A DNA stretch of 47,200 nucleotides from Candidatus Hodarchaeota archaeon (GCA_016839785.1 JAEOTQ010000124.1:1-47200), one strand, 5' to 3'. Positions 47 through 47,200 are shown, counted from the first letter of the stretch. The notes: a model not told the origin generated them from the sequence alone. A program made the numbers and translations.

Positions 47-180
47 ATTTCGACCTTTATATTGAATTAAATTCAGAATTAAATTTGGATTCTCGAGGAC
101 AGGCAAGAAAAAGGAAATGGATAAAGCTTATGCTTTACAATTTAGCCATTTAACACAGGTTAAATGACAGATACACAGAT

Positions 181-1278
181 CTAATGTTGTTGCATCTCTC
201 CACCACAGAACATGCAATTAGACATGTTTGTTTCTTTCATAGTGGAGTAGCAATCTGGACAAACACTTCTAAAACAGGTAAGACATTGATAGTGAGGAGC
301 GGAGATAGAAATTTCTCCCTCATGTAGATAACATCTTATTTTATCTGATCCCAATACTAAATAATCATCAGAGGCTGTATCATATGTTCCTGAGGTATCT
401 AAGAACCCCTGAATAAGTTGTTGTTCAACTAAATTTCTCAGTATCATATTCACTAGGGGAATGTCTAATTTATTAATTCGGGCAATTCGCGTTAATGGTA
501 TTTGCTTCCTTCCCTCAATATCGTGAATCATCGTAATGGTGTCTAATACAGCCTTTTTATGCTTATTTATTTCTCTTTCTTGCTTTCTGAAGTCTAAAAA
601 TGTACGAGTATTATTTTTGATGTCGGAGAATGACCAACGACGTTTATTTAATGCTTTAATGTCGTTGAGTACCGTGTTTGAAACATCTTTAACTCCTTTC
701 TTTGATAAATTAGTCTTCTGAGTTTGGTAATAATCTCCAAGGGAGGATACAGCACCTTTTCGATTTAATAATGATTTTACATCTTCTTTCTTAAAAATAC
801 GTGGAACAGGAATTAGTCCACCTTTACAATATGGACACGTATCTGTTTGTACGCTCTGATAACAAGAACTACAAATAAACCGTAAACAAGTACCACATTG
901 AAAGTGCAGGTCAAAAACAGAGTGTTCTGTTTGATCTATCTGACAAAAGTAGGTATCCTCACGAAGGATGAGAAACTGTTCATTAGACTCAGGATCTCTT
1001 TCGATGATACCATCAATTAACCGTTGCGCAGTAAATTCTTGAATAATAAAGATTACATCGTTCTCTGAGAGTTCAGTTTCCTTTGCAACTTCGCCTATCG
1101 CAATTCGACCTTCGTGTAATTTGTTAAGTCGAGAAATTGTAATAAAGGTTCGCTTAATTGGGTGTGAAGATATTTTATACTCCGTTTCATAAGCTTGAAA
1201 ATGAGTTACCTCAGAGTTGACAATTCGTGATACTGAAGCCTTAATTTTATCAGAAAAGCTTCGATTAGTTTGATTCAT
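181..1278 (-). CDS. Protein with two tandem [PCI-like winged helix + RING/C4C4-like Zn finger] units
   Basis: Two Cys clusters (CQID..H..CGTC..CSSC..CPYC; CYLH..H.QCLTC..CPDC..CMFC), each preceded by a WH-like segment (RIAIGEVAKETELSENDV..LIDGII; QIPLTRIARINKLDIPLV..LIQGFLD). Confidence 0.7.
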   Translation of the reverse strand: MNQTNRSFSDKIKASVSRIVNSEVTHFQAYETEYKISSHPIKRTFITISRLNKLHEGRIAIGEVAKETELSENDVIFIIQEFTAQRLIDGIIERDPESNEQFLILREDTYFCQIDQTEHSVFDLHFQCGTCLRFICSSCYQSVQTDTCPYCKGGLIPVPRIFKKEDVKSLLNRKGAVSSLGDYYQTQKTNLSKKGVKDVSNTVLNDIKALNKRRWSFSDIKNNTRTFLDFRKQEREINKHKKAVLDTITMIHDIEGRKQIPLTRIARINKLDIPLVNMILRNLVEQQLIQGFLDTSGTYDTASDDYLVLGSDKIRCYLHEGEISISAPHYQCLTCFRSVCPDCYSTMKETNMSNCMFCGGEMQQH

Positions 1279-37716: not shown

Positions 37717-39858
37717 TTAGAAAAGCTTATCCTCATCTATAAGTAGATTTAAATATTCCTTCAGCTTATCCGAGGTGTCGTCTTTCTTTTGTTCATGTTT
37801 TATGATAACTTGTGTCTCTGAAATTTCCTTAAATTGCAAGGCGGCTCTTATTGAAGCATGAATAATCTTACTTGCAAATCGAACTGAACCCTCTGATTCT
37901 ATAGGAATTTGCATTGCTTCTTTCAATAAATTTCCAAGTTGTTGTTCTGATATTAGTTCAGAAATGTGTGCTTGTCCAATAGGAAATCCTCGTTGAGTAA
38001 AACTAAGGATAAACCCTTTTTTCACATATTCTAGAGTAAAGGCAACTGTTTCACTATCTGGAAGTGAGATTTCGTTTCCACTGGTTTCTAACTCAATTGG
38101 AATAATAAATTCGACCAGGTCCGCTCTAACTCCAGTTTCACTTCGAAGTGTTTTTGTAGTGACATCCATTGTTGAGCTGATTTTTTTAGCTTTTAATTGC
38201 TTGATTGAATTATAGATTATCTTAGCTGCGAAATACATTGATGAAATGCCATCTTCAAAAACGCCAATACTCATAAGATTCTTTTCATAGGCGAGTAAGT
38301 AAAGGATTTCCTCTTCTGTTGCTTCAGATGAAATCAAAGAACTTCCAAGCAATTCCTTTTGCCCCATTTTGCTCCGTAGCTGAAAAGAAATAAGAGCATT
38401 AAGACCAGCATCAACTAAATCTACTTTAAATCCCATCCCTTGAGTATTTGGTAATGCAATAACCCCTTCGTTGCTTTCCATCTCAACTGGAATGTCTAAA
38501 TGTGTATAATCTACTAATTTCTTTTTTACTTCTTTCTCTTTCTTTTGAACTACTTTTTTAGAAGGAATAATATAACTTTGAACTATTTCTCTCATGCTTA
38601 TGTGTGGTTTTTCAGATGCTAATACTAAGCATTTAACAATATCTGCTTCTTCTAATTCTCCCTTAAGAATCATTGAAAATAATCCAAGAAGTTTATTGTG
38701 ATCAATAGTTCGATACTTTTCTACCCCTTGAGATTTCTCAATAAATGGCAAGTACTTTAAGAAAATATCACTTACTAAAGGTACAGGCATTCCAGAAGTA
38801 ACACCCATTTCAAATAATTGGAGCCATCCACTATTTACAAGTTCATTAGCTTCTTCAAAACCGATACGATAGAATTCAATTAGGTGATTTACCTCAACCG
38901 AACTAGTAGGAGGAGTCAATTGAGATTCGGTCTCTATAGAAATTTCTTTAAGTGGTGGTGAAGTGAAGCTTTTTATTTCCATTTCCTCTGAATTGGGATC
39001 TCTGTGTACTAGGGTTGTTTCTGAAATAGATTCCTCGCTTGCTGCACTACCAAGAAAGACTTTAGATTCTTCAGAAACGTCTGATGCTGTTTTCAAAGAT
39101 TGTTTCATAAGAAAGCGTATTTTCTCTGCTACAGCAGTATCCTCATCCGATTCTGTTGGTATTAGTCGTGTTTGTGCCGAGTGAACTGCTGGTTCCATTT
39201 TTTCTGCAAGTGTCATAACAATTTCATGATGTTCTTCTATTTCCCCAATCAATCGTCCATTTACAAAGTCGCTTTGAGCAAGCTTTGGAATAGAAAGTTC
39301 AAAAATCCGTCCAAACGTGTCAATAACACTTTCAGGTCTATAAATTGTTGTTCTAAAAAATTTTAATTGATTTGAGGACTCAATTTGAAATTGCTCTTTT
39401 AATTGCTCATGAATTGATTCATAATTAGGGCTATTCCTAATTAAATCGTTCTTGTGTAAGAATATGAATATATTGGCTGCTGGAGAGAATTTCTTCAATT
39501 TTTCTAAACAAGCAGTGAAATATTGAATTGAGTTATTTCGTGAGGTTTTATTTGCAACATCAGTCAGAAAAATAAATATTTTAACATTACTAAATACAAA
39601 TGGACTAAATCCACTTAGAAATCGTTGTAAAAAGATCTTTTGTCCGCCCAAATCAACAATAGTGACTGGTATATCATTCACTGTGAGAGACAATCTTTCG
39701 TAATTAATTGTCGCAGACAGCTGATTCACGTCTTCAGTTTGCTGTTTTAAAAAGAAAATTCGCTTTACTGCGGTTTTTCCTGCTTCACTCAAACCAGCAA
39801 TTAAGATTTTATATCCGAGTTGTTGAGAAATCTCAGACTCTGAAACCCATCGTGACAT
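37717..39858 (-). CDS. Rag/Gtr-like small GTPase with long C-terminal extension containing two ~100-aa repeats
   Basis: G1 GLSEAGKT, G2 ATIN, G3 DLGGQ, G4 HKND, G5 TTI; start placed at ATG 39858. Confidence 0.85.
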   Translation of the reverse strand: MSRWVSESEISQQLGYKILIAGLSEAGKTAVKRIFFLKQQTEDVNQLSATINYERLSLTVNDIPVTIVDLGGQKIFLQRFLSGFSPFVFSNVKIFIFLTDVANKTSRNNSIQYFTACLEKLKKFSPAANIFIFLHKNDLIRNSPNYESIHEQLKEQFQIESSNQLKFFRTTIYRPESVIDTFGRIFELSIPKLAQSDFVNGRLIGEIEEHHEIVMTLAEKMEPAVHSAQTRLIPTESDEDTAVAEKIRFLMKQSLKTASDVSEESKVFLGSAASEESISETTLVHRDPNSEEMEIKSFTSPPLKEISIETESQLTPPTSSVEVNHLIEFYRIGFEEANELVNSGWLQLFEMGVTSGMPVPLVSDIFLKYLPFIEKSQGVEKYRTIDHNKLLGLFSMILKGELEEADIVKCLVLASEKPHISMREIVQSYIIPSKKVVQKKEKEVKKKLVDYTHLDIPVEMESNEGVIALPNTQGMGFKVDLVDAGLNALISFQLRSKMGQKELLGSSLISSEATEEEILYLLAYEKNLMSIGVFEDGISSMYFAAKIIYNSIKQLKAKKISSTMDVTTKTLRSETGVRADLVEFIIPIELETSGNEISLPDSETVAFTLEYVKKGFILSFTQRGFPIGQAHISELISEQQLGNLLKEAMQIPIESEGSVRFASKIIHASIRAALQFKEISETQVIIKHEQKKDDTSDKLKEYLNLLIDEDKLF

Positions 39859-40094
39859 CGCTAATTGTATCCTAAAATGTAAGATGAAAATCACAGATCA
39901 AAGAAGATTATTATTAGATATATTCATGTATATCTGTGAATAACATTATAATAAGCCTCCTAATTAACTCATCCGAAATTAATTGGGAGAATCTATTTAT
40001 AATTATTGATATCATTTATACAAATTATTAATTAGGTACAATTTCCCTGAGTATTAATAATTCATATGAATTCAACGAAGTGTTGTGATCATAG

Positions 40095-40991
40095 ATGCAA
40101 CAGAATAATAAACCTAACAAGGTATTGTTTATGGGACTGGGAGCAAGTGGCAAAAGTAGCATTAGATCAATTGTATTTGAAGGAAAATCTTTAGAAGATG
40201 TTAAGGATTATAATGCTACTATTAATTATACTCGTTCAACAAAGAATATTATTGACGCACCTTTTCAAATTTTCGATTGTGGTGGTCAAGAGAGTTTTAT
40301 CTCAGTTTTTGTGGGTGAGCAAGCTGAATTTATTTTTAGTGATGTGGCGGTTCTTATCTGGGTAATAGATGTGTCAAATTTCGACGCTGTTTCTACTTCA
40401 AGATTCTATTTTAATCTGGCCCAAAAAAAATTAGTAGAATACTCCAAAGGAGCAATTATATTCTGTCTTCTCCACAAAATGGATTTATTAATACCTGATA
40501 TGAAAAAAAATGTCAATGAAACAATAGAATCGTATTTTAGCCCGATAGCTGGAGTAGAAATTAAATATAGAAGTACATCGATATTTGATCAATCCATCTA
40601 CAATGTTGTAGGGGAGATGATTCAAGCACTTATTCTTAAAAGTACGAAAGCTCAATCAGTGTCAGGGGCAATTGAAGAATTTATTAAAACGCATGATGAA
40701 ATGGCGGGTGTAGCTATCTACACGGATGATGGTTTACCTGTTTTCGAAGAAGGAGATACCGATAGAATAATCTTACCAGCCAATCTCTGGTTGGCGTCAT
40801 ATGATAGGTTATCTAAGGAATATCATCGGGAAGGTATGAAAACAATACTTGAGACAGAAAATTATATTTTCGTGTTCCGCAATATCAAATCTGAACTTCT
40901 CCTTTCAGGAATTGCTCGAAAAATAGCTCCATTACAATATGTTTTGGTAAAAATGGAACAATTAGAAGAGATATTGAATAAACTACTCTAA
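40095..40991 (+). CDS. RagA/Gtr1-like GTPase with C-terminal roadblock domain
   Basis: KVLFMGLGASGKSSIRSIVF, DCGGQ, IFSDVAVLIWVIDV, IFCLLHKMDL, TSIFD; C-terminal GVAIYTDDGLPV..ILETENYIFVF roadblock pattern. Confidence 0.9.
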   Translation: MQQNNKPNKVLFMGLGASGKSSIRSIVFEGKSLEDVKDYNATINYTRSTKNIIDAPFQIFDCGGQESFISVFVGEQAEFIFSDVAVLIWVIDVSNFDAVSTSRFYFNLAQKKLVEYSKGAIIFCLLHKMDLLIPDMKKNVNETIESYFSPIAGVEIKYRSTSIFDQSIYNVVGEMIQALILKSTKAQSVSGAIEEFIKTHDEMAGVAIYTDDGLPVFEEGDTDRIILPANLWLASYDRLSKEYHREGMKTILETENYIFVFRNIKSELLLSGIARKIAPLQYVLVKMEQLEEILNKLL

Positions 40992-41101: not shown

Positions 41102-42448
41102 TTATTTATCATTACTTTGCTTTTTTTCTTCATCGGTCATGTATTTGCCAAATAAATTCTGAATATCATCCATTGCTATTTGTAATTCTTCATGTGGAAC
41201 ACCTTTTGACCTTTCAAACCAACCTCTCTTAATTGTGGACTTTGAATCATCATGATATGCAATCAGATTAGAAGCATCATTGAAAACATCCCGTAATTCT
41301 GGAATACGAGGTAAACCAAATAGGAGAAGTAATGAAGATTTTTCCATTTCGGGATCGTCATATGATACAAACGATGGTTGAATGGATCCTCCTTTCACTA
41401 AATAGGGTGCTAAGATTTTTTTCAAGTAAGCAGAATACTCAAGTTTCGAAATATCTTTATTACCAGTCAATATGGAGTATACTGAACCTGCAGCAGGTTT
41501 TTTATCAATATCCGTTAAGGAACAGTGATTGACGGTGTATCTAGCCGCTAAAGCCATTTGCTTATCCATTCGTCCATATTCAGGCAAAAAATACATGTCT
41601 TCAAAGAAACACGGAACTACAACTGGATCTAGTCTTCGAGAATAGTCAGCTAAATCAGTCGTAGGCATAACCTTTTTACCATGTTCTTGAATGCTTGGAG
41701 AGAGAATTGATTCTATAGTACGTAGAGCTAGCGGATTTACTAACTGTGTGAACTCTACTCCAGCGTCTGTTCGTAATTTTTCATCATTTTTTGTTAAATT
41801 TGAGGAATCTATACCAAGAGATTGATCTAATAAACCATTAGCTCGGCCTTCTCTCCACTCCATTACTCGTTTTAACATAGTTTTATTTGATAACAAGAAA
41901 ATTAAATTAGGACCTTTTTTTGGTTCTAATTGATTTCTTAATAGTGTTGATAAAGACCAAATTGAGTTTATTGCTTCAGAAGACTGGTTTTCAAATGGTA
42001 GGACACCAAATACATAAATGAAAATTCTACGTTCATCAGAAAAATGTTTATGTAACAGTTCAACAAGAGCAGGGGTTCCCCCGCACCCAGTCCCCCCACC
42101 CATGCTTGTTAATAGTATAAAACCTGAAACTCCTTCATAACCTAAACCCTGGAGTTGATTAAGAATAACCTCTTGATTTTTCATAACAAGTTCGTAACCT
42201 TCTTTAAATTTCCCTCCTACTCCTATCTCTTCATCAGAATACAATAGTGTATTGCGACTTGGAATTGAATATTCTGTTCTAGTTTTGAGAAGATCAGTCT
42301 TATCAGTATTCATTATGAGGTATTCACGAATCCGTGTGGAACCAGTTCGATTTTTTTCTTCCTGAATATAGGATCCTACTAAATTAGATCCACATTCACC
42401 TAATCCGATCACAAATACATCTGTCTCTCTACTAATTTCACTCATCAT
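41102..42448 (-). CDS. Divergent tubulin/FtsZ-superfamily GTPase with tubulin-like C-terminal helices
   Basis: IGLGECGSNL, MNTD, GVGG, GFILLTSMGGGTGCG, VLPF, NSIWSL, TDLADY..LDP, WF..G....E...A..D...L...Y; GAGGT RBS. Confidence 0.9.
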   Translation of the reverse strand: MMSEISRETDVFVIGLGECGSNLVGSYIQEEKNRTGSTRIREYLIMNTDKTDLLKTRTEYSIPSRNTLLYSDEEIGVGGKFKEGYELVMKNQEVILNQLQGLGYEGVSGFILLTSMGGGTGCGGTPALVELLHKHFSDERRIFIYVFGVLPFENQSSEAINSIWSLSTLLRNQLEPKKGPNLIFLLSNKTMLKRVMEWREGRANGLLDQSLGIDSSNLTKNDEKLRTDAGVEFTQLVNPLALRTIESILSPSIQEHGKKVMPTTDLADYSRRLDPVVVPCFFEDMYFLPEYGRMDKQMALAARYTVNHCSLTDIDKKPAAGSVYSILTGNKDISKLEYSAYLKKILAPYLVKGGSIQPSFVSYDDPEMEKSSLLLLFGLPRIPELRDVFNDASNLIAYHDDSKSTIKRGWFERSKGVPHEELQIAMDDIQNLFGKYMTDEEKKQSNDK

Positions 42449-42460
42449 TTCTATTACCTC

Positions 42461-45400
42461 TTATCTATGCATTACGTAATACTCAACTGCAAATGAAAGG
42501 TATTTCATCATTGGTTGATGTGAATAAGCTTCCTCAATCTCCCTCTTAGCGTTAGCGATATAAGTAACCTTTGCTTCATGAACTGTAGTAGGAACATAAT
42601 CACTAATGAAAAGAAATAGCAAACGTTGCCATTTTGTAAGTAATGGTAAACTTTCTTGTCTCCACTGAGTTTTTAGCTTTGATATAGTGGTCAATATATC
42701 GTAAACTTCATTTAGATTTGTTTCAACCTGCAAACTTGCTCTTGCATCAATTAACTTCTTTAAAGGAAAAATATCTTCAGAACATTCATCAAGTTTAAAT
42801 TCGAAAACAGCATGAATACTTGGATAGTAGGGAACTTTTGGATCATTCGAAAGGTCACTTAAATAAAGTTCATAATTTTTCTTTTCCAATTCTCTAATAG
42901 ATTCGAGACATAATTTAGTCGCCTCCACAATTTCTATAGTGGAACTGGCTATTAGATCAAACGACCAAAATTGTACTGCATTTCGAGCTTGTTTTATTCT
43001 TACTACGTGTGGCATTAATGTCTGTTGAGTATTTTTCCAACCTAATGCCTGAATGAAGTCAAGTATTCTGATAGCTGTGGTATTTGTTGAATCAATAATT
43101 GCAAATAACGATTTTTGTAATTCCTCGTTCTTCAAAATTTTATCTAGCTCAACAAAAGATTGAGTAAGCATTTCAATTGACATCATGTCACTAGTATCGG
43201 CTTGTATTAGTTGTGTGAAAACTTCTATTTGTTCTCCAACAAGATTTTGGATATCTGTTAATCCACATGCCTGAAGTTGACTAATTTTTCGTAGAAGGTT
43301 TTTACTTGCAATGCTTAGTAATTCCATAAGTTTGGCTAATAAGATATATTCATAATCATGAATTGTTTCCACAATCAATCGATTTAGGGACTCTAATGTT
43401 TGTCCTTCAATAGGAATGGTACTCTCAAGATATGAATGAACTTTATGGACTTCAGGAGATACATCACCCATTGCTTCAATTATTCGGGGGAGACTTACAG
43501 TTACTTTATTATAAAATAACGCTTTTAATTTTTCTAATCCTTCCTGAGCTTTAGTAGTTGCATTATTCAAGAAGAATTCAAATTTTGTCATGATATCCTC
43601 TAGATCCTTGGATTGGCTAAGTTCAGTAATCCCTTGTTCAAGAACTAAGAATAATTGATTAAACATTCCTAAATAATGTGTTGGGAGTGACTTATATTGT
43701 TTTAACCATCCAGATAAAATATCTCGACATTTCAGTCGAACTAATTCACTTCTCTTGGTATTATATGTGTGTAAGCGGAACCAAAGCTCTAATAGATCGG
43801 AATAATCAAGTGCTTCCAAATCTCTAGGAATTTCAAACATTGGGAGTGATCCAATCTCTTCTTTGAAGTGTGTTAGGGATGATCGTTTGATGCTATCAAC
43901 CAGTTCAATCTGTCTCGAACATTCTTCTATCATCGTGCCTTTTGATGAGCTCATGAGTTTCATAAACTCGAAGTAAGCTTTGATCATTGCAATCGAATTC
44001 CGAGAAGCAGAGGTTCCAGTTAATTTTATTATAAGTTCATTTTTCTCTTTCCGTAAATCGACTGGAACTTCACCAGGAATCATGGGAAAGTTGAGTGCCT
44101 CTATTTTGTTTTTGAGATAAGAAAGCGTTTTCTGCTTCCAATCCTCGACTTCATCAATCCTGTCAAGTAATTCAGATAAGTCAAGTTCACCTGCATCTTC
44201 TACAAACGGAGTACGAGGTAGATTTGGATCCGATTGTAGTAATTCTAAAATAGTTACATTCTTTACATAATCTTTGATGGAAGCTGCAGTCAATGTGACG
44301 AATTGCTTGTAAAGTCTGTCATATGAGCGTCTATAAAGTAAAAGGGTCTGTATATCAGATTCTGAAGCCATTTTATCATAAAGTGAATTCAGTTCAGTCT
44401 GAAAATTAGGTGGAAAGTTGTTTATTCCTTTTTTTTCAATTTTACTTGCTATCGTAATTGTATCATTTATTGCATGCCTTGCTTCTTGAAGGACATTAAC
44501 AAGTTTATTTTTCCATATGTTGACCGATCTCAAATAATTCAACAGTTCAGTTGGACTATCAGACTCAAAGACAACAACAGGTGGTTTAAGCGATATTAAT
44601 GCCTTAGAATCTGAGTCTGTAGCTTCAAAAGCAAGCTTATTCCGAATTTCTTCACGAATAATTTCCAAAAATTCAGAATAATATACATGAAAATTCTTTA
44701 GCTTTGATAATACCTCTTTTAAGTTGTCTGGTGTTTCCTGAACACGATTCGCGTGTTCTTTGGCGTTGACTAATAGAGTATTCGGTATTGACACCCCCTC
44801 TTGAAACACTCCTTCATTAGCCTGATAAAGCTCTTCTGTAGAAGCTATTCTTTTAACTCCGTTAATAACGTTTGTTTTCCATGTTTGGATTTGCTCCAAA
44901 TAATTCGCTAATTCTGATATCGAAGAATTGGTCATCGCTATCTCTGGAGGGAGTGGAATTAATTTATCGGAAAGTGTTGGAAACAATCCCCTTATCTGAA
45001 CGATACTATTGTTAATCGAGCTTTTTATTCGTGTTATCTCAGATTTAATAGTAGTACTAAACTTCGTTATGAGGGTAGATAGGGATCTATGGAGCTGATT
45101 AAGCTCGTATATCGTCTTCACTTGTTCGATTTCACTAATTAACTGCTGAATACCTTGATATTCTGAACTATCTGTTATAATTTTCCCTTTCTCCGCTTCA
45201 TTTATTGAATACAATAGATCATGTGTCTGTTGAAGCATCTTCTCTTGAACTAAATTCTTAGAGGAGGCTAATTGCAGATCTATAAGTTTTCCTTCCTCCT
45301 TAAGCTCAAAATATACCTTGATCAATCCTTGTGGATCATAAGTAGATAATATCTCATCATTTAAACTTTTACTCAGCTTTAAAGCACTGGATTCTATCTT

Positions 45401-45889
45401 GAATAGATCAGTATATATGGTAATTTTGGATTTATTCTCATCTAATACCTTAGAACATAAATCCTTTACTTGTCTGATTGAGATTTCTAATACTGTTTCT
45501 AAATCTTTAATAAAATCATCAATAGCGTTAATTTCAGATGTTAACGGCAGATTAAGACTCTTTAATGAGTTTGCTGCTTGTGGAGCAACGGTTGATAAAC
45601 TGTTTGCTTGATCGTTAAGTCTTGGTTTAAGTGTTTTAACAATTGATTCATAAATGCATTCTAAACAGTCATCTTCTCCTGTCTTTATCAGAGCCTGGAT
45701 TTCTTCCTGTTGTTTCTTTAATCCTCTTTTGGCTATCCTTCCAGCAGATCTAATCTCATCCTCTAGTTGAGAATATTTTTGAATTTGCTTGGAAAGAGAA
45801 GTGAGGTTTCGTGAGCAAACAGGTGTACTAAAATGTTTATTCAGTCTAGAGAGTAAATCTGTTATTTTCTTCATATTCTTAGAAGACAT
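42461..45889 (-). CDS. 1142-aa all-helical rod-like protein with ~122-125-aa internal repeats
   Basis: Long amphipathic helices, recurring P..EL..YL....WK motif; no Walker A motif or TM segment seen. Confidence 0.8.
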   Translation of the reverse strand: MSSKNMKKITDLLSRLNKHFSTPVCSRNLTSLSKQIQKYSQLEDEIRSAGRIAKRGLKKQQEEIQALIKTGEDDCLECIYESIVKTLKPRLNDQANSLSTVAPQAANSLKSLNLPLTSEINAIDDFIKDLETVLEISIRQVKDLCSKVLDENKSKITIYTDLFKIESSALKLSKSLNDEILSTYDPQGLIKVYFELKEEGKLIDLQLASSKNLVQEKMLQQTHDLLYSINEAEKGKIITDSSEYQGIQQLISEIEQVKTIYELNQLHRSLSTLITKFSTTIKSEITRIKSSINNSIVQIRGLFPTLSDKLIPLPPEIAMTNSSISELANYLEQIQTWKTNVINGVKRIASTEELYQANEGVFQEGVSIPNTLLVNAKEHANRVQETPDNLKEVLSKLKNFHVYYSEFLEIIREEIRNKLAFEATDSDSKALISLKPPVVVFESDSPTELLNYLRSVNIWKNKLVNVLQEARHAINDTITIASKIEKKGINNFPPNFQTELNSLYDKMASESDIQTLLLYRRSYDRLYKQFVTLTAASIKDYVKNVTILELLQSDPNLPRTPFVEDAGELDLSELLDRIDEVEDWKQKTLSYLKNKIEALNFPMIPGEVPVDLRKEKNELIIKLTGTSASRNSIAMIKAYFEFMKLMSSSKGTMIEECSRQIELVDSIKRSSLTHFKEEIGSLPMFEIPRDLEALDYSDLLELWFRLHTYNTKRSELVRLKCRDILSGWLKQYKSLPTHYLGMFNQLFLVLEQGITELSQSKDLEDIMTKFEFFLNNATTKAQEGLEKLKALFYNKVTVSLPRIIEAMGDVSPEVHKVHSYLESTIPIEGQTLESLNRLIVETIHDYEYILLAKLMELLSIASKNLLRKISQLQACGLTDIQNLVGEQIEVFTQLIQADTSDMMSIEMLTQSFVELDKILKNEELQKSLFAIIDSTNTTAIRILDFIQALGWKNTQQTLMPHVVRIKQARNAVQFWSFDLIASSTIEIVEATKLCLESIRELEKKNYELYLSDLSNDPKVPYYPSIHAVFEFKLDECSEDIFPLKKLIDARASLQVETNLNEVYDILTTISKLKTQWRQESLPLLTKWQRLLFLFISDYVPTTVHEAKVTYIANAKREIEEAYSHQPMMKYLSFAVEYYVMHR

Positions 45890-45953: not shown

Positions 45954-46892
45954 CTATAAAGTTGTAGAAGATTGGATTTGTATCCATGCTAATGAACACC
46001 TAATTATATATTCAGCAAGTGCTTTCACACAATCCTTGATCTTTTTCCGCATGGTCAGTTCAACCAGTCTAAAAGGAATATTTGATAAATCCTCTTCAGA
46101 GGTTCCTAATATTTGACCTGACAATTCGTTTAGTTTTTCCGATATTTGAGTTGAAAGTAGTGGAATATACTTTGCCCAATCAAAATGAATTAATATACCT
46201 AAAGATAACCGATGAGTCTGTCCTTTATCCAACCATTTTTTTGGACTATAAAGGAATATTGAGGAAGTATATTCTGCGAAATCAATATTTAACGCTGAGG
46301 CTCCCAAATCCTTACCTAAATCAGTTTGATCTCCATTTAGTTCATCATCCTCAATATGCTTCTCAACAAATAAAGAAAACATATCTAGTACCTGTTTTTT
46401 ATCTACTTCACTCATATCATAAGTTACTTCCCACAGGGAAGATGTTGAACCTTGAAAAGCGGAAAAAAAATCGATAATGACTGCAATTTTAGCTTCTTTC
46501 ATTCTACTATAGATTTTTTCATATGGGATGCTCTCTCCCACTTCCAATAAACTTTGGAATGCTGATTCATCTGCATCAAAGAAAGAAGCAAAATCAGTTA
46601 TGGAAGTTTCTTCAACCCCTTCTTCAGCTCCAAAAGCCATCGCTGCGATATCTTCTAAATCCATTTCCTGTAGTGCTCTTTTCTTTTCCTCTCTCTCTTC
46701 AATTTCCGAAAATAATGATGATACCATTGAAGAATCATAGAATAGTTGATAGATTCTTAGAAGTAGATCATTAAGTTCATTTTCTTTAATATCTGCGTTG
46801 AATTCCCTAAGAATCGAACGCATTACTACATGTTTCGCCATCCGTGTTGAACGGACCTTATCTTCGATTTCACCAGTTACGAATTTTGACAT
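45954..46892 (-). CDS. Hypothetical protein: helical N-domain, acidic linker, putative longin/uDENN-like C-domain
   Basis: AVIIDFFSAFQGSTSSLW beta-hairpin; ALNIDF..YTSSIFLY..RLSLGILI beta-strands followed by helices. Confidence 0.55.
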   Translation of the reverse strand: MSKFVTGEIEDKVRSTRMAKHVVMRSILREFNADIKENELNDLLLRIYQLFYDSSMVSSLFSEIEEREEKKRALQEMDLEDIAAMAFGAEEGVEETSITDFASFFDADESAFQSLLEVGESIPYEKIYSRMKEAKIAVIIDFFSAFQGSTSSLWEVTYDMSEVDKKQVLDMFSLFVEKHIEDDELNGDQTDLGKDLGASALNIDFAEYTSSIFLYSPKKWLDKGQTHRLSLGILIHFDWAKYIPLLSTQISEKLNELSGQILGTSEEDLSNIPFRLVELTMRKKIKDCVKALAEYIIRCSLAWIQIQSSTTL

Positions 46893-47102
46893 TGGAGTTC
46901 ATCTTATAATAGAGATAAGTTTCGAGAGAAATATACGAATGATTGTAGCTTCGACCTCTTCTATGAAATCTTTGAGTATAAAATAACTAACTTACTTTTA
47001 AAAATATTGCAATGGAAATAATTAACCAAAATAGAGTAATCATTCAATATTCTTTAATTCCATGACCATCATGACTAATTTTGTCAGACAACTAGTTGAA
47101 AA

Positions 47103-47200
47103 CTAATTCTGGACAGGATGAGTCACACATCCGCTATCCGGCAGGTTAGCAACCAGAGAATGACTGCTTTCCATTGGGACTACTTGGGGGTCAGAGCGAA
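47103..47200 (-). other. GC-richer edge segment, possibly the 3' end of a minus-strand gene (tnpB-like C-terminus) and/or a structured RNA
   Basis: Minus frame reads ..RSDPQVVPMESSHSLVANLPDSGCVTHPVQN*; contains hairpins; truncated by the window edge. Confidence 0.25.

Follow-up and report, generated by a model that had tools for sequence, protein, structure and literature searches.

A helical rod protein built of tandem bundle units, encoded beside a tubulin-like GTPase in an Asgard archaeon: a candidate filament spacer or tether

The window analysed in this study is a stretch of 47,200 nucleotides from Candidatus Hodarchaeota archaeon (GCA_016839785.1 JAEOTQ010000124.1:1-47200; 34–40% G+C), the minus strand of which carries three consecutive genes encoding proteins of 312, 1142 and 448 amino acids. 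The second of them, the subject of this work, encodes an all-helical protein referred to below as the rod, and the third encodes a GTPase of the tubulin/FtsZ superfamily. The rod gene is followed, after a gap of 12 nucleotides and on the same strand, by the GTPase gene. These elements are as follows.

42461..45889, minus strand: rod gene, 1142 amino acids, all-helical product of no known family (open reading frame call; null family scans; all-alpha AlphaFold2 model)
42456..42460, minus strand: Shine-Dalgarno-like GAGGT within the 12 nucleotides that separate the stop codon of the rod gene from the GTPase ATG (sequence reading)
41102..42448, minus strand: tubulin/FtsZ-superfamily GTPase gene, 448 amino acids, probably of the Asgard CetZ-like 'Asg.Tub' type (PF00091; CetZ proteins as the closest solved relatives)

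A sequence-only reading of this DNA had proposed that the rod conceals four copies of a repeat of 122–125 residues marked by aromatic residues, with weaker copies on either side. All eight peptides quoted in support were found in the 1142-residue open reading frame, and the codons of the aromatic residues W337, W459, W584 and Y709 were confirmed to begin at 44881, 44515, 44140 and 43765, which gives spacings of 122, 125 and 125 codons. To place the repeat on a statistical footing, relatives were collected by a search of 5.8 billion proteins, which returned 25 at 49–100% identity, the named ones being Hodarchaeales or "Promethearchaeota". Alignment A1 comprised 23 full-length close orthologues and was cut at the unit boundaries of the earlier reading; alignment A2 (38 rows) additionally held distant relatives (17–25% identity, 864–1311 residues) drawn from 1.84 billion representatives. 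A protein search seeded with A2 returned only close relatives of the rod type found in the window (type A).

In A1, unit U1 (residues 312–433) aligned to U2 (434–556) with an hhalign score of 44.4 (P 3.2e-7) over 98 columns in register, U1 to U3 (557–681) with 32.1 (P 6.6e-5; 36 columns in register), and U2 to U3 with 29.7 (P 1.8e-4; 106 columns in register). None of 60 column shuffles equalled the observed score for any of these pairs, the shuffle maxima being 18–22 and the reversed controls 11–15, and with A2 the corresponding scores were 84.1 (P 6e-15), 41.3 and 44.3. On these values (P 3e-7 to 2e-4 with A1, down to 6e-15 with A2), the tandem repeat is real for the first three copies, residues 312–681, whose residues W337, W459 and W584 were invariant in the 23 orthologues.

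The suspicion of further copies on either side held only upstream. With A2, the segment preceding U1, termed U0 (residues 171–311), scored 49.8 against U1 (P 2.5e-8) and 49.3 against U2 (P 3.4e-8), and none of 50 shuffles was as high. Column shuffles turned out to be a poor null for weak pairs, as every helical pair beats them, even the N-terminal domain against U0, and they were replaced by the spread of all 28 unit pairs in A2 together with reversed sequences. The 23 other unit pairs scored 13–27, including the out-of-register match of the N-terminal domain with U0 at 26.8. Since non-homologous helical pairs thus reach the 20s, scores in this range were regarded as general helical likeness, and U4, U5 and U6 are indistinguishable from the background; neither the 28-pair spread nor the reversed-sequence null supported them as copies. 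The fourth copy named in the earlier reading, U4 (cut at residues 682–806), scored 18.2, 14.0 and 11.5 against U3, U1 and U2 with A1, values that 1, 12 and 37 of 60 shuffles, respectively, equalled or exceeded, and 17–24.5 with A2, inside the range of non-homologous helical pairs. It is therefore inseparable from the helical background and not proven, and its aromatic residue invariant in the 23 orthologues was W703, not Y709. A non-circular one-step repeat model, trained on 39 units from the type-A model and judged against a reversed-sequence null (best 12.7 bits), found equivalents of U0 and U1 in relatives of about 900 residues at 13–43 bits and did not recover U4. Equivalents of U4 in paralogues were found only by an iterated profile (2e-6 to 2e-17); as such units could themselves have been drawn into the model in the course of iteration, these matches were not counted as proof. 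We conclude that the rod is a tandem array of helical-bundle units of about 115–130 residues, at least four in number (residues 171–681). Its parts, all on the minus strand, are the following.

45380..45889, minus strand: N-terminal helical domain, residues 1–170, with a conserved basic motif at 41–60 (helices 4–160 in the model; conservation profile)
44957..45379, minus strand: U0, residues 171–311, an upstream copy beyond those named in the earlier reading (hhalign against U1 and U2, shuffles, one-step model)
44591..44956, minus strand: U1, residues 312–433, with W337 (hhalign, shuffles)
44222..44590, minus strand: U2, residues 434–556, with W459, absent from the relatives of about 900 residues (hhalign, shuffles, genome search)
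43847..44221, minus strand: U3, residues 557–681, with W584, absent from the relatives of about 900 residues (hhalign, shuffles, genome search)
43460..43846, minus strand: U4, residues 682–810, a possible degenerate copy, not proven (background-level scores; the same linker-plus-long-helix pattern as the other units)
42830..43459, minus strand: more helical bundles, residues 811–1020 (secondary-structure pattern; unit comparisons of only 13–27)
42464..42829, minus strand: conserved C-terminal domain, residues 1021–1142, predicted GTPase-binding site (conservation, complex prediction)

Conservation in the rod family was highest at residues 1021–1140 and second highest at residues 41–60.

The AlphaFold2 model of the full-length rod was all-alpha, with a predicted local distance difference test (pLDDT) value of 82.2 and a predicted template modelling (pTM) score of 0.37, the latter being taken as usual for an elongated chain. 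A two-unit fragment (residues 171–436; alignment A4, 30 sequences) was modelled with a pLDDT of 87.4 and a pTM of 0.70. The full-length model contains non-helical, proline-bearing linkers of about 17–21 residues at 303–323, 429–445, 554–570 and 676–695, and the order after each linker is a Trp-carrying helix of about 25 residues, two short helices and a helix of about 30 residues; the Trp-bearing helices span 324–348 (W337), 446–468 (W459) and 571–597 (W584). Residues 34–116 of the fragment superposed on antiparallel three-helix bundles (Z 10.1, root-mean-square deviation (rmsd) 1.7, 77 residues aligned), and residues 113–255 on four- or five-helix bundles (Z 9.0, rmsd 3.2, 128 aligned), the latter match taking in the end of the last helix of the preceding unit. 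Adjacent units would accordingly interlock in the model and may give a stiff rod, the length of which can be put at roughly 35–45 nm from the helix lengths. The segmented helical-bundle rod envisaged in the sequence-only reading is supported by these models, which predict an all-helical, elongated chain of bundle units.

That reading had also invoked spectrin repeats and the spectrin-like rods of EzrA and PRC1. The spectrin repeat comprises about 106 residues folded into three long helices, the last of which runs on into the first helix of the unit that follows. Like spectrin and alpha-actinin, the rod consists of tandem helical-bundle units whose number differs among family members and sets the length; the conserved Trp in the first helix of a spectrin unit has counterparts in W337, W459 and W584, and the unit core aligns to antiparallel three-helix bundles. 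The last two features would suit a reading of the units as genuine spectrin repeats that have diverged, which would make the rod an archaeal representative of the spectrin, alpha-actinin or PRC1 type, a possibility that we nevertheless regard as highly improbable. The period is 122–125 residues instead of about 106, the modelled unit has four helices and is joined to the next by a non-helical proline-bearing linker of about 20 residues in place of a continuous helix, and no match to the spectrin repeat (PF00435) was found in Pfam at E ≤ 0.1 over the whole rod.

Family and fold searches pointed in the same direction. The whole protein had no Pfam, NCBIfam or PDB sequence match; at E ≤ 0.1, Pfam gave only Phasin, Baculo_PEP_C and Methyltransf_31, each below its own cut-off, and Protein Atlas gave one lead at 0.79, to an 897-residue Thorarchaeota cluster. 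Foldseek against the PDB returned 0 matches at E ≤ 0.001 for either the full-length model or the two-unit fragment. The best Z values in VIA were 9.9 for the full-length model, 10.1 for the fragment and 10.4 for the fragment on the top chains of Foldseek, all below the stated helical noise level of Z about 13. The best rows of the fold searches were generic three- to five-helix bundles (Z ≤ 10.4); no spectrin or EzrA chain was among the Foldseek and VIA rows listed, although not being listed does not exclude either.

As regards PRC1 (4l3i), the fold match was weak (Foldseek E 0.53–0.55; VIA Z 6.2 at an rmsd of 12.4 over 208 residues) and Pfam gave no sequence relation between the rod and the PRC1/Ase1/MAP65 proteins. 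The likeness to these proteins lies in an elongated helical rod with a filament-binding helical domain at its C-terminal end, which in the rod is a prediction, and such an architecture would suit the holding of tubulin-type filaments at a set distance. EzrA is an FtsZ regulator with spectrin-like repeats, and the rod would resemble it as a helical-repeat protein tied, by a predicted link, to a tubulin-superfamily protein in a prokaryote. No EzrA match was found for the rod in Pfam or NCBIfam at E ≤ 0.1, and, in a difference from EzrA, no N-terminal membrane helix was evident in the rod. The staphylococcal proteins Ebh and Embp likewise form rods from repeats of about 126 residues arranged as tandem three- or four-helix bundles; they are extracellular bacterial adhesins, the comparison is an analogy only, and the fold matches were weak (2dgj, Foldseek E 1.1, VIA Z 5.9, rmsd 8.8; 6gv5, Z 7.5). 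Kinship with spectrin, EzrA or PRC1 is consequently not supported, given the null Pfam scans, the non-helical linkers and the lack of a fold match beyond helical noise: the spectrin reading fails as membership and survives as an architectural analogy.

The number of units varies within the family. The iterated model recognised four in the rod of the window (174–300, 312–428, 434–551 and 559–672), five in a paralogue from the same genome (type B, described below), five or six in relatives of 1283–1311 residues, six in a partial relative of at least 1244 residues, and two strong units in the forms of about 900 residues. In a genome search, the last-mentioned forms matched only residues 4–396 and 628–1132 of the query, which indicates that they are without roughly U2 and U3. 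Among the sampled genomes, all forms above about 1060 residues fell within one clade, made up of the genus of the window and its order. In the f10 and f11 rods (1023–1035 residues; L040 of G007 and L046 of G005), the first recognisable unit lay near 333–370, not near 180, pointing to a longer N-terminal part; the f10 and f11 GTPases form the deepest branch of the GTPase tree.

The GTPase encoded downstream matched PF00091 at E 8.5e-19 (69 bits, cut-off 33 bits), and against the canonical FtsZ model TIGR00065 it reached 39.4 bits, far under the equivalog cut-off of 295.2 bits. Its nearest solved relatives were CetZ proteins (4b46 and 3zid), with a profile of 13 orthologues reaching 4b46 at E 3.9e-13. 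In these 13 orthologues, the nucleotide-binding glycine-rich loop GGGTGCGG and the segment PTTDLADY were conserved, with T264, D265 and D268 invariant, and judging from its sequence the GTPase looks intact. We take PTTDLADY to be the T7 loop, whose acidic residues complete the active site of the next subunit, from the order of elements in the fold. The relatives carried the source names Thorarchaeota, Hodarchaeales, Heimdallarchaeota, Hermodarchaeota and "Asgardarchaeia", and one bore the name "Tubulin-like protein CetZ".

By its description, namely an Asgard-only distribution, CetZ proteins as nearest relatives, and occurrence in Heimdall- and Thor-type lineages, the GTPase probably corresponds to 'Asg.Tub', the CetZ-like group in Asgardarchaeota reported in the available part of Santana-Molina et al. 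2023 (PMC9871819). There, its genome context is given as unknown genes, most of them with coiled-coil regions; the available part of a preprint (bioRxiv 10.64898/2026.02.15.705738) calls the same clade the 'CetZ-related Asgard archaeal clade'. The rod, its repeat, the variable unit number, the strict pairing and the predicted interface are not described in the available part of PMC9871819, and no description of the rod family, repeat or pairing was found in the literature searched, which included the available parts of PMC10936438 and 10.64898/2026.10.28.762692, with supplements outside the search. The GTPase clade and a remark on its context are thus already in print, and the rod is undescribed in the literature searched, which likewise yielded no bench studies of the rod or the GTPase.

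The association of the two genes extends across the Asgard archaea. Of 400 Asgard genomes, 129 contained the rod and 127 the GTPase, and the families concerned were the same (for rod and GTPase alike, 21 of 21 genomes in f1, 0 of 135 in f20 and 0 of 31 in f4). Adjacency was counted over 138 GTPase places, the second fragments of two split genes being left out, and against the 126 listed rod matches (whole protein or C-terminal part), a further 91 matches being unlisted. Among the rod matches listed, a rod gene stood directly upstream on the same strand at no fewer than 110 of the 138 places, with a median gap of 63 bp; among the same matches, 25 of the other places had no rod on the contig and 3 had one farther apart.

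The genome of the window holds a second pair, type B, on contig C230. Its rod and GTPase genes are 9.9 kb apart here and adjacent in other genomes of the genus, and the type A pair was present in 7–8 of the 22 genomes of the genus. In the GTPase tree (IQ-TREE, 33 rows), type A was sister to f2 plus type B within one Hodarchaeales clade (support 100/98), and the rod tree (FastTree, 32 rows, 891 columns) had the same topology (support 0.999). This congruence shows that the two genes duplicated as one pair, in Hodarchaeales. The type-B interval (L003 10906-18001 part) was seen to contain an AAA ATPase gene (Pfam AAA, E 4e-35) and several genes without a Pfam family.

To assess direct binding, a complex prediction was run with rod residues 811–1142 (A2) and the GTPase (A5). 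The interaction prediction score from aligned errors (ipSAE) was 0.68 (runs 0.68, 0.70 and 0.66), with 0.02 for the best of three controls; of 80 solved complexes, 58 attain the mark used for this score, as do 2 of 110 mismatched pairs, counts that are only rough here, as our own alignments were used. The runs shared at least 61% of contacts, with a partner pLDDT of at least 79. Because the rod has no solved relative, the predictor is unlikely to have passed by reproducing a known complex. Rod residues 1024, 1086–1097 and 1117–1127 were predicted to contact GTPase residues 206 and 284–308, so that the contacts coincide, in the rod, with the region of highest family conservation and, in the GTPase, with conserved residues. 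The principal GTPase element lies as follows.

41525..41599, minus strand: GTPase residues 284–308, predicted rod-contact loop and helix (complex prediction; P289, G292 and Q297 conserved)

What the model supports is a predicted interaction in which the rod C-terminal domain binds the GTPase at a side loop. Residues 284–308 presumably represent the side loop and H9, which follow the T7 loop, H8 and S7 in the tubulin/FtsZ fold; their position would then be lateral and clear of the longitudinal contacts of the polymer. Two residue pairs can be added as anecdotes that would fit a contact: at rod 1092 and GTPase 303, most lineages combine R or K with D or E, type A having F opposite R or K instead, and rod 1120 and GTPase 296 are E-K in many lineages and K-E in one. 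Taken together, adjacency at no fewer than 110 of 138 places, co-duplication and, as far as binding is concerned, a predicted complex scoring above its controls substantiate the tie to the tubulin-like gene that the sequence-only reading had drawn.

A third conserved gene, encoding about 300–360 amino acids and without a Pfam family, immediately followed the GTPase gene in 11 of the 12 loci fetched (L034:12789-13868, L036:6905-7975, L037:11755-12765 and eight more loci). The type-A copy has no such gene, either in the window or in L033, a locus of another species of the genus, and the sole copy of it in this genome is beside the type-B GTPase (G000:C230:26333-27166). The frequent presence of this gene would suit a rod acting as an independent structural element, for instance a helical scaffold that assembles by itself and shares its expression with the GTPase without touching it, the two being linked through the third gene or a shared location; the covariation test given below, which lent no support to a direct interface, would suit it as well. 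We consider such an arrangement quite unlikely, since the complex prediction passes all three controls and the type-A pair, which has no third gene, still keeps the conserved C-terminal domain of the rod.

We also considered that the rod is an assembly regulator which covers the side loop and helix of the GTPase and thereby sequesters subunits or blocks lateral association and bundling, the repeats being a mere scaffold; EzrA and stathmin-type regulators provide parallels. A predicted contact confined to residues 284–308 of one GTPase monomer is in keeping with this role, as is the translational coupling of the genes, which suggests near-equal dosage. A regulator needs neither a unit number that varies among lineages nor a second conserved end (residues 41–60), and no likeness to EzrA or another known regulator was found in Pfam, PDB sequence, Foldseek or VIA searches, so that regulation of this kind appears unlikely.

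The reading that we favour, with a probability of roughly 0.55, is that the rod is a dedicated partner of the GTPase, a spacer or tether attached by its C-terminal end and with its length set by the number of units. In the proposed mechanism, the C-terminal domain of the rod (1086–1097 and 1117–1127) would clamp the GTPase loop and helix 284–308. If on the lateral face, this contact would be compatible with filament growth, and the rod could decorate the filament without blocking it. As a stiff spacer, roughly 35–45 nm long and again with its length given by unit number, the rod would keep the filament a constant distance away from the target of the conserved basic N-terminal domain, be it another rod, a membrane or another protein.

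Several points weigh against this proposal. Binding comes from one prediction, made with unpaired alignments of 36 and 13 rows. Covariation over 48 pairs did not single out the interface: the mean percentile was 0.60 for 22 testable contact pairs, and 88 of 277 sliding windows were at or above the interface score. The charge pairing between rod 1092 and GTPase 303 fails in f12 (R-K) and f8 (R-R). The 9.9-kb separation of the type-B genes in this genome implies that the two genes need not be strictly adjacent. That the GTPase polymerises is an assumption from its motifs alone, and the length and straightness of the rod and the lateral placing of the contact are readings of models and of fold order.

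A wider picture can be sketched very tentatively, and we hold it to be unlikely as it stands: about one third of Asgard genomes would possess a tubulin-superfamily filament system with a rod resembling a microtubule-associated protein, its bundle units gained and lost, gripping the filament laterally at one end and anchoring or cross-linking at the other, with the rod expanded and the pair duplicated in Hodarchaeales, where the window copy stands beside Rag/Gtr-type genes. Were this picture true, the pair would constitute a prokaryotic length-coded filament spacer, and cytoskeleton paralogues would have diversified with their binding partners before eukaryotes arose. Hodarchaeales are the Asgard lineage placed closest to eukaryotes, and the Asgard cytoskeleton is central to recent work on eukaryote origins. 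True tubulins are reported in only about 1% of Asgard genomes according to the available part of PMC13394414, against roughly one in three of the 400 sampled here for the CetZ-like GTPase and the rod. The module is open to testing, consisting of two co-expressible proteins with a predicted interface and named residues on both sides; natural length variants of about 900, 1140 and 1310 residues bear directly on the idea of a ruler, and a filament protein and its partner are seen to duplicate and diverge together.

The remaining gene of the minus-strand trio lies upstream of the rod gene.

45954..46892, minus strand: gene for a 312-residue protein, found only with the type-A pair (counterpart of 60% identity in L033)

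Its product had no Pfam match and was unrelated to the product of the third operon gene (hhalign probability 0.1). Identity as a DNA-polymerase-B exonuclease was considered from Protein Atlas scores of 0.82–0.86, which were to fragments only, and was rejected as unreliable. A further two genes, flanking the type-A pair at 37717-39894 on the minus strand and 40095-40991 on the plus strand, encode small GTPases of the Gtr1/RagA type (Pfam E 1e-30 and 4e-38); both genes hold the same position in L033, and one of the encoded proteins has 725 residues with a long C-terminal extension. In the metatranscriptome library X5, contigs of 151–238 nucleotides with 0–1 differences fell on the GTPase gene, the rod gene (four pieces) and the upstream gene. 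None of these contigs, which are assembled data, spans both the rod and GTPase genes, and they give a weak hint of expression of the three genes, with DNA carry-over being possible.

Near the end of the window, the metagenome contig depth at positions 47067-47186 was 86–214 in two DNA runs that gave 0–27 over the rest of the stretch. Neither an Rfam match (E ≤ 0.01) nor a tRNA was found in this segment. Many contigs end at 47070, 47106 and 47140, and it looks like a repeated or widely conserved element.

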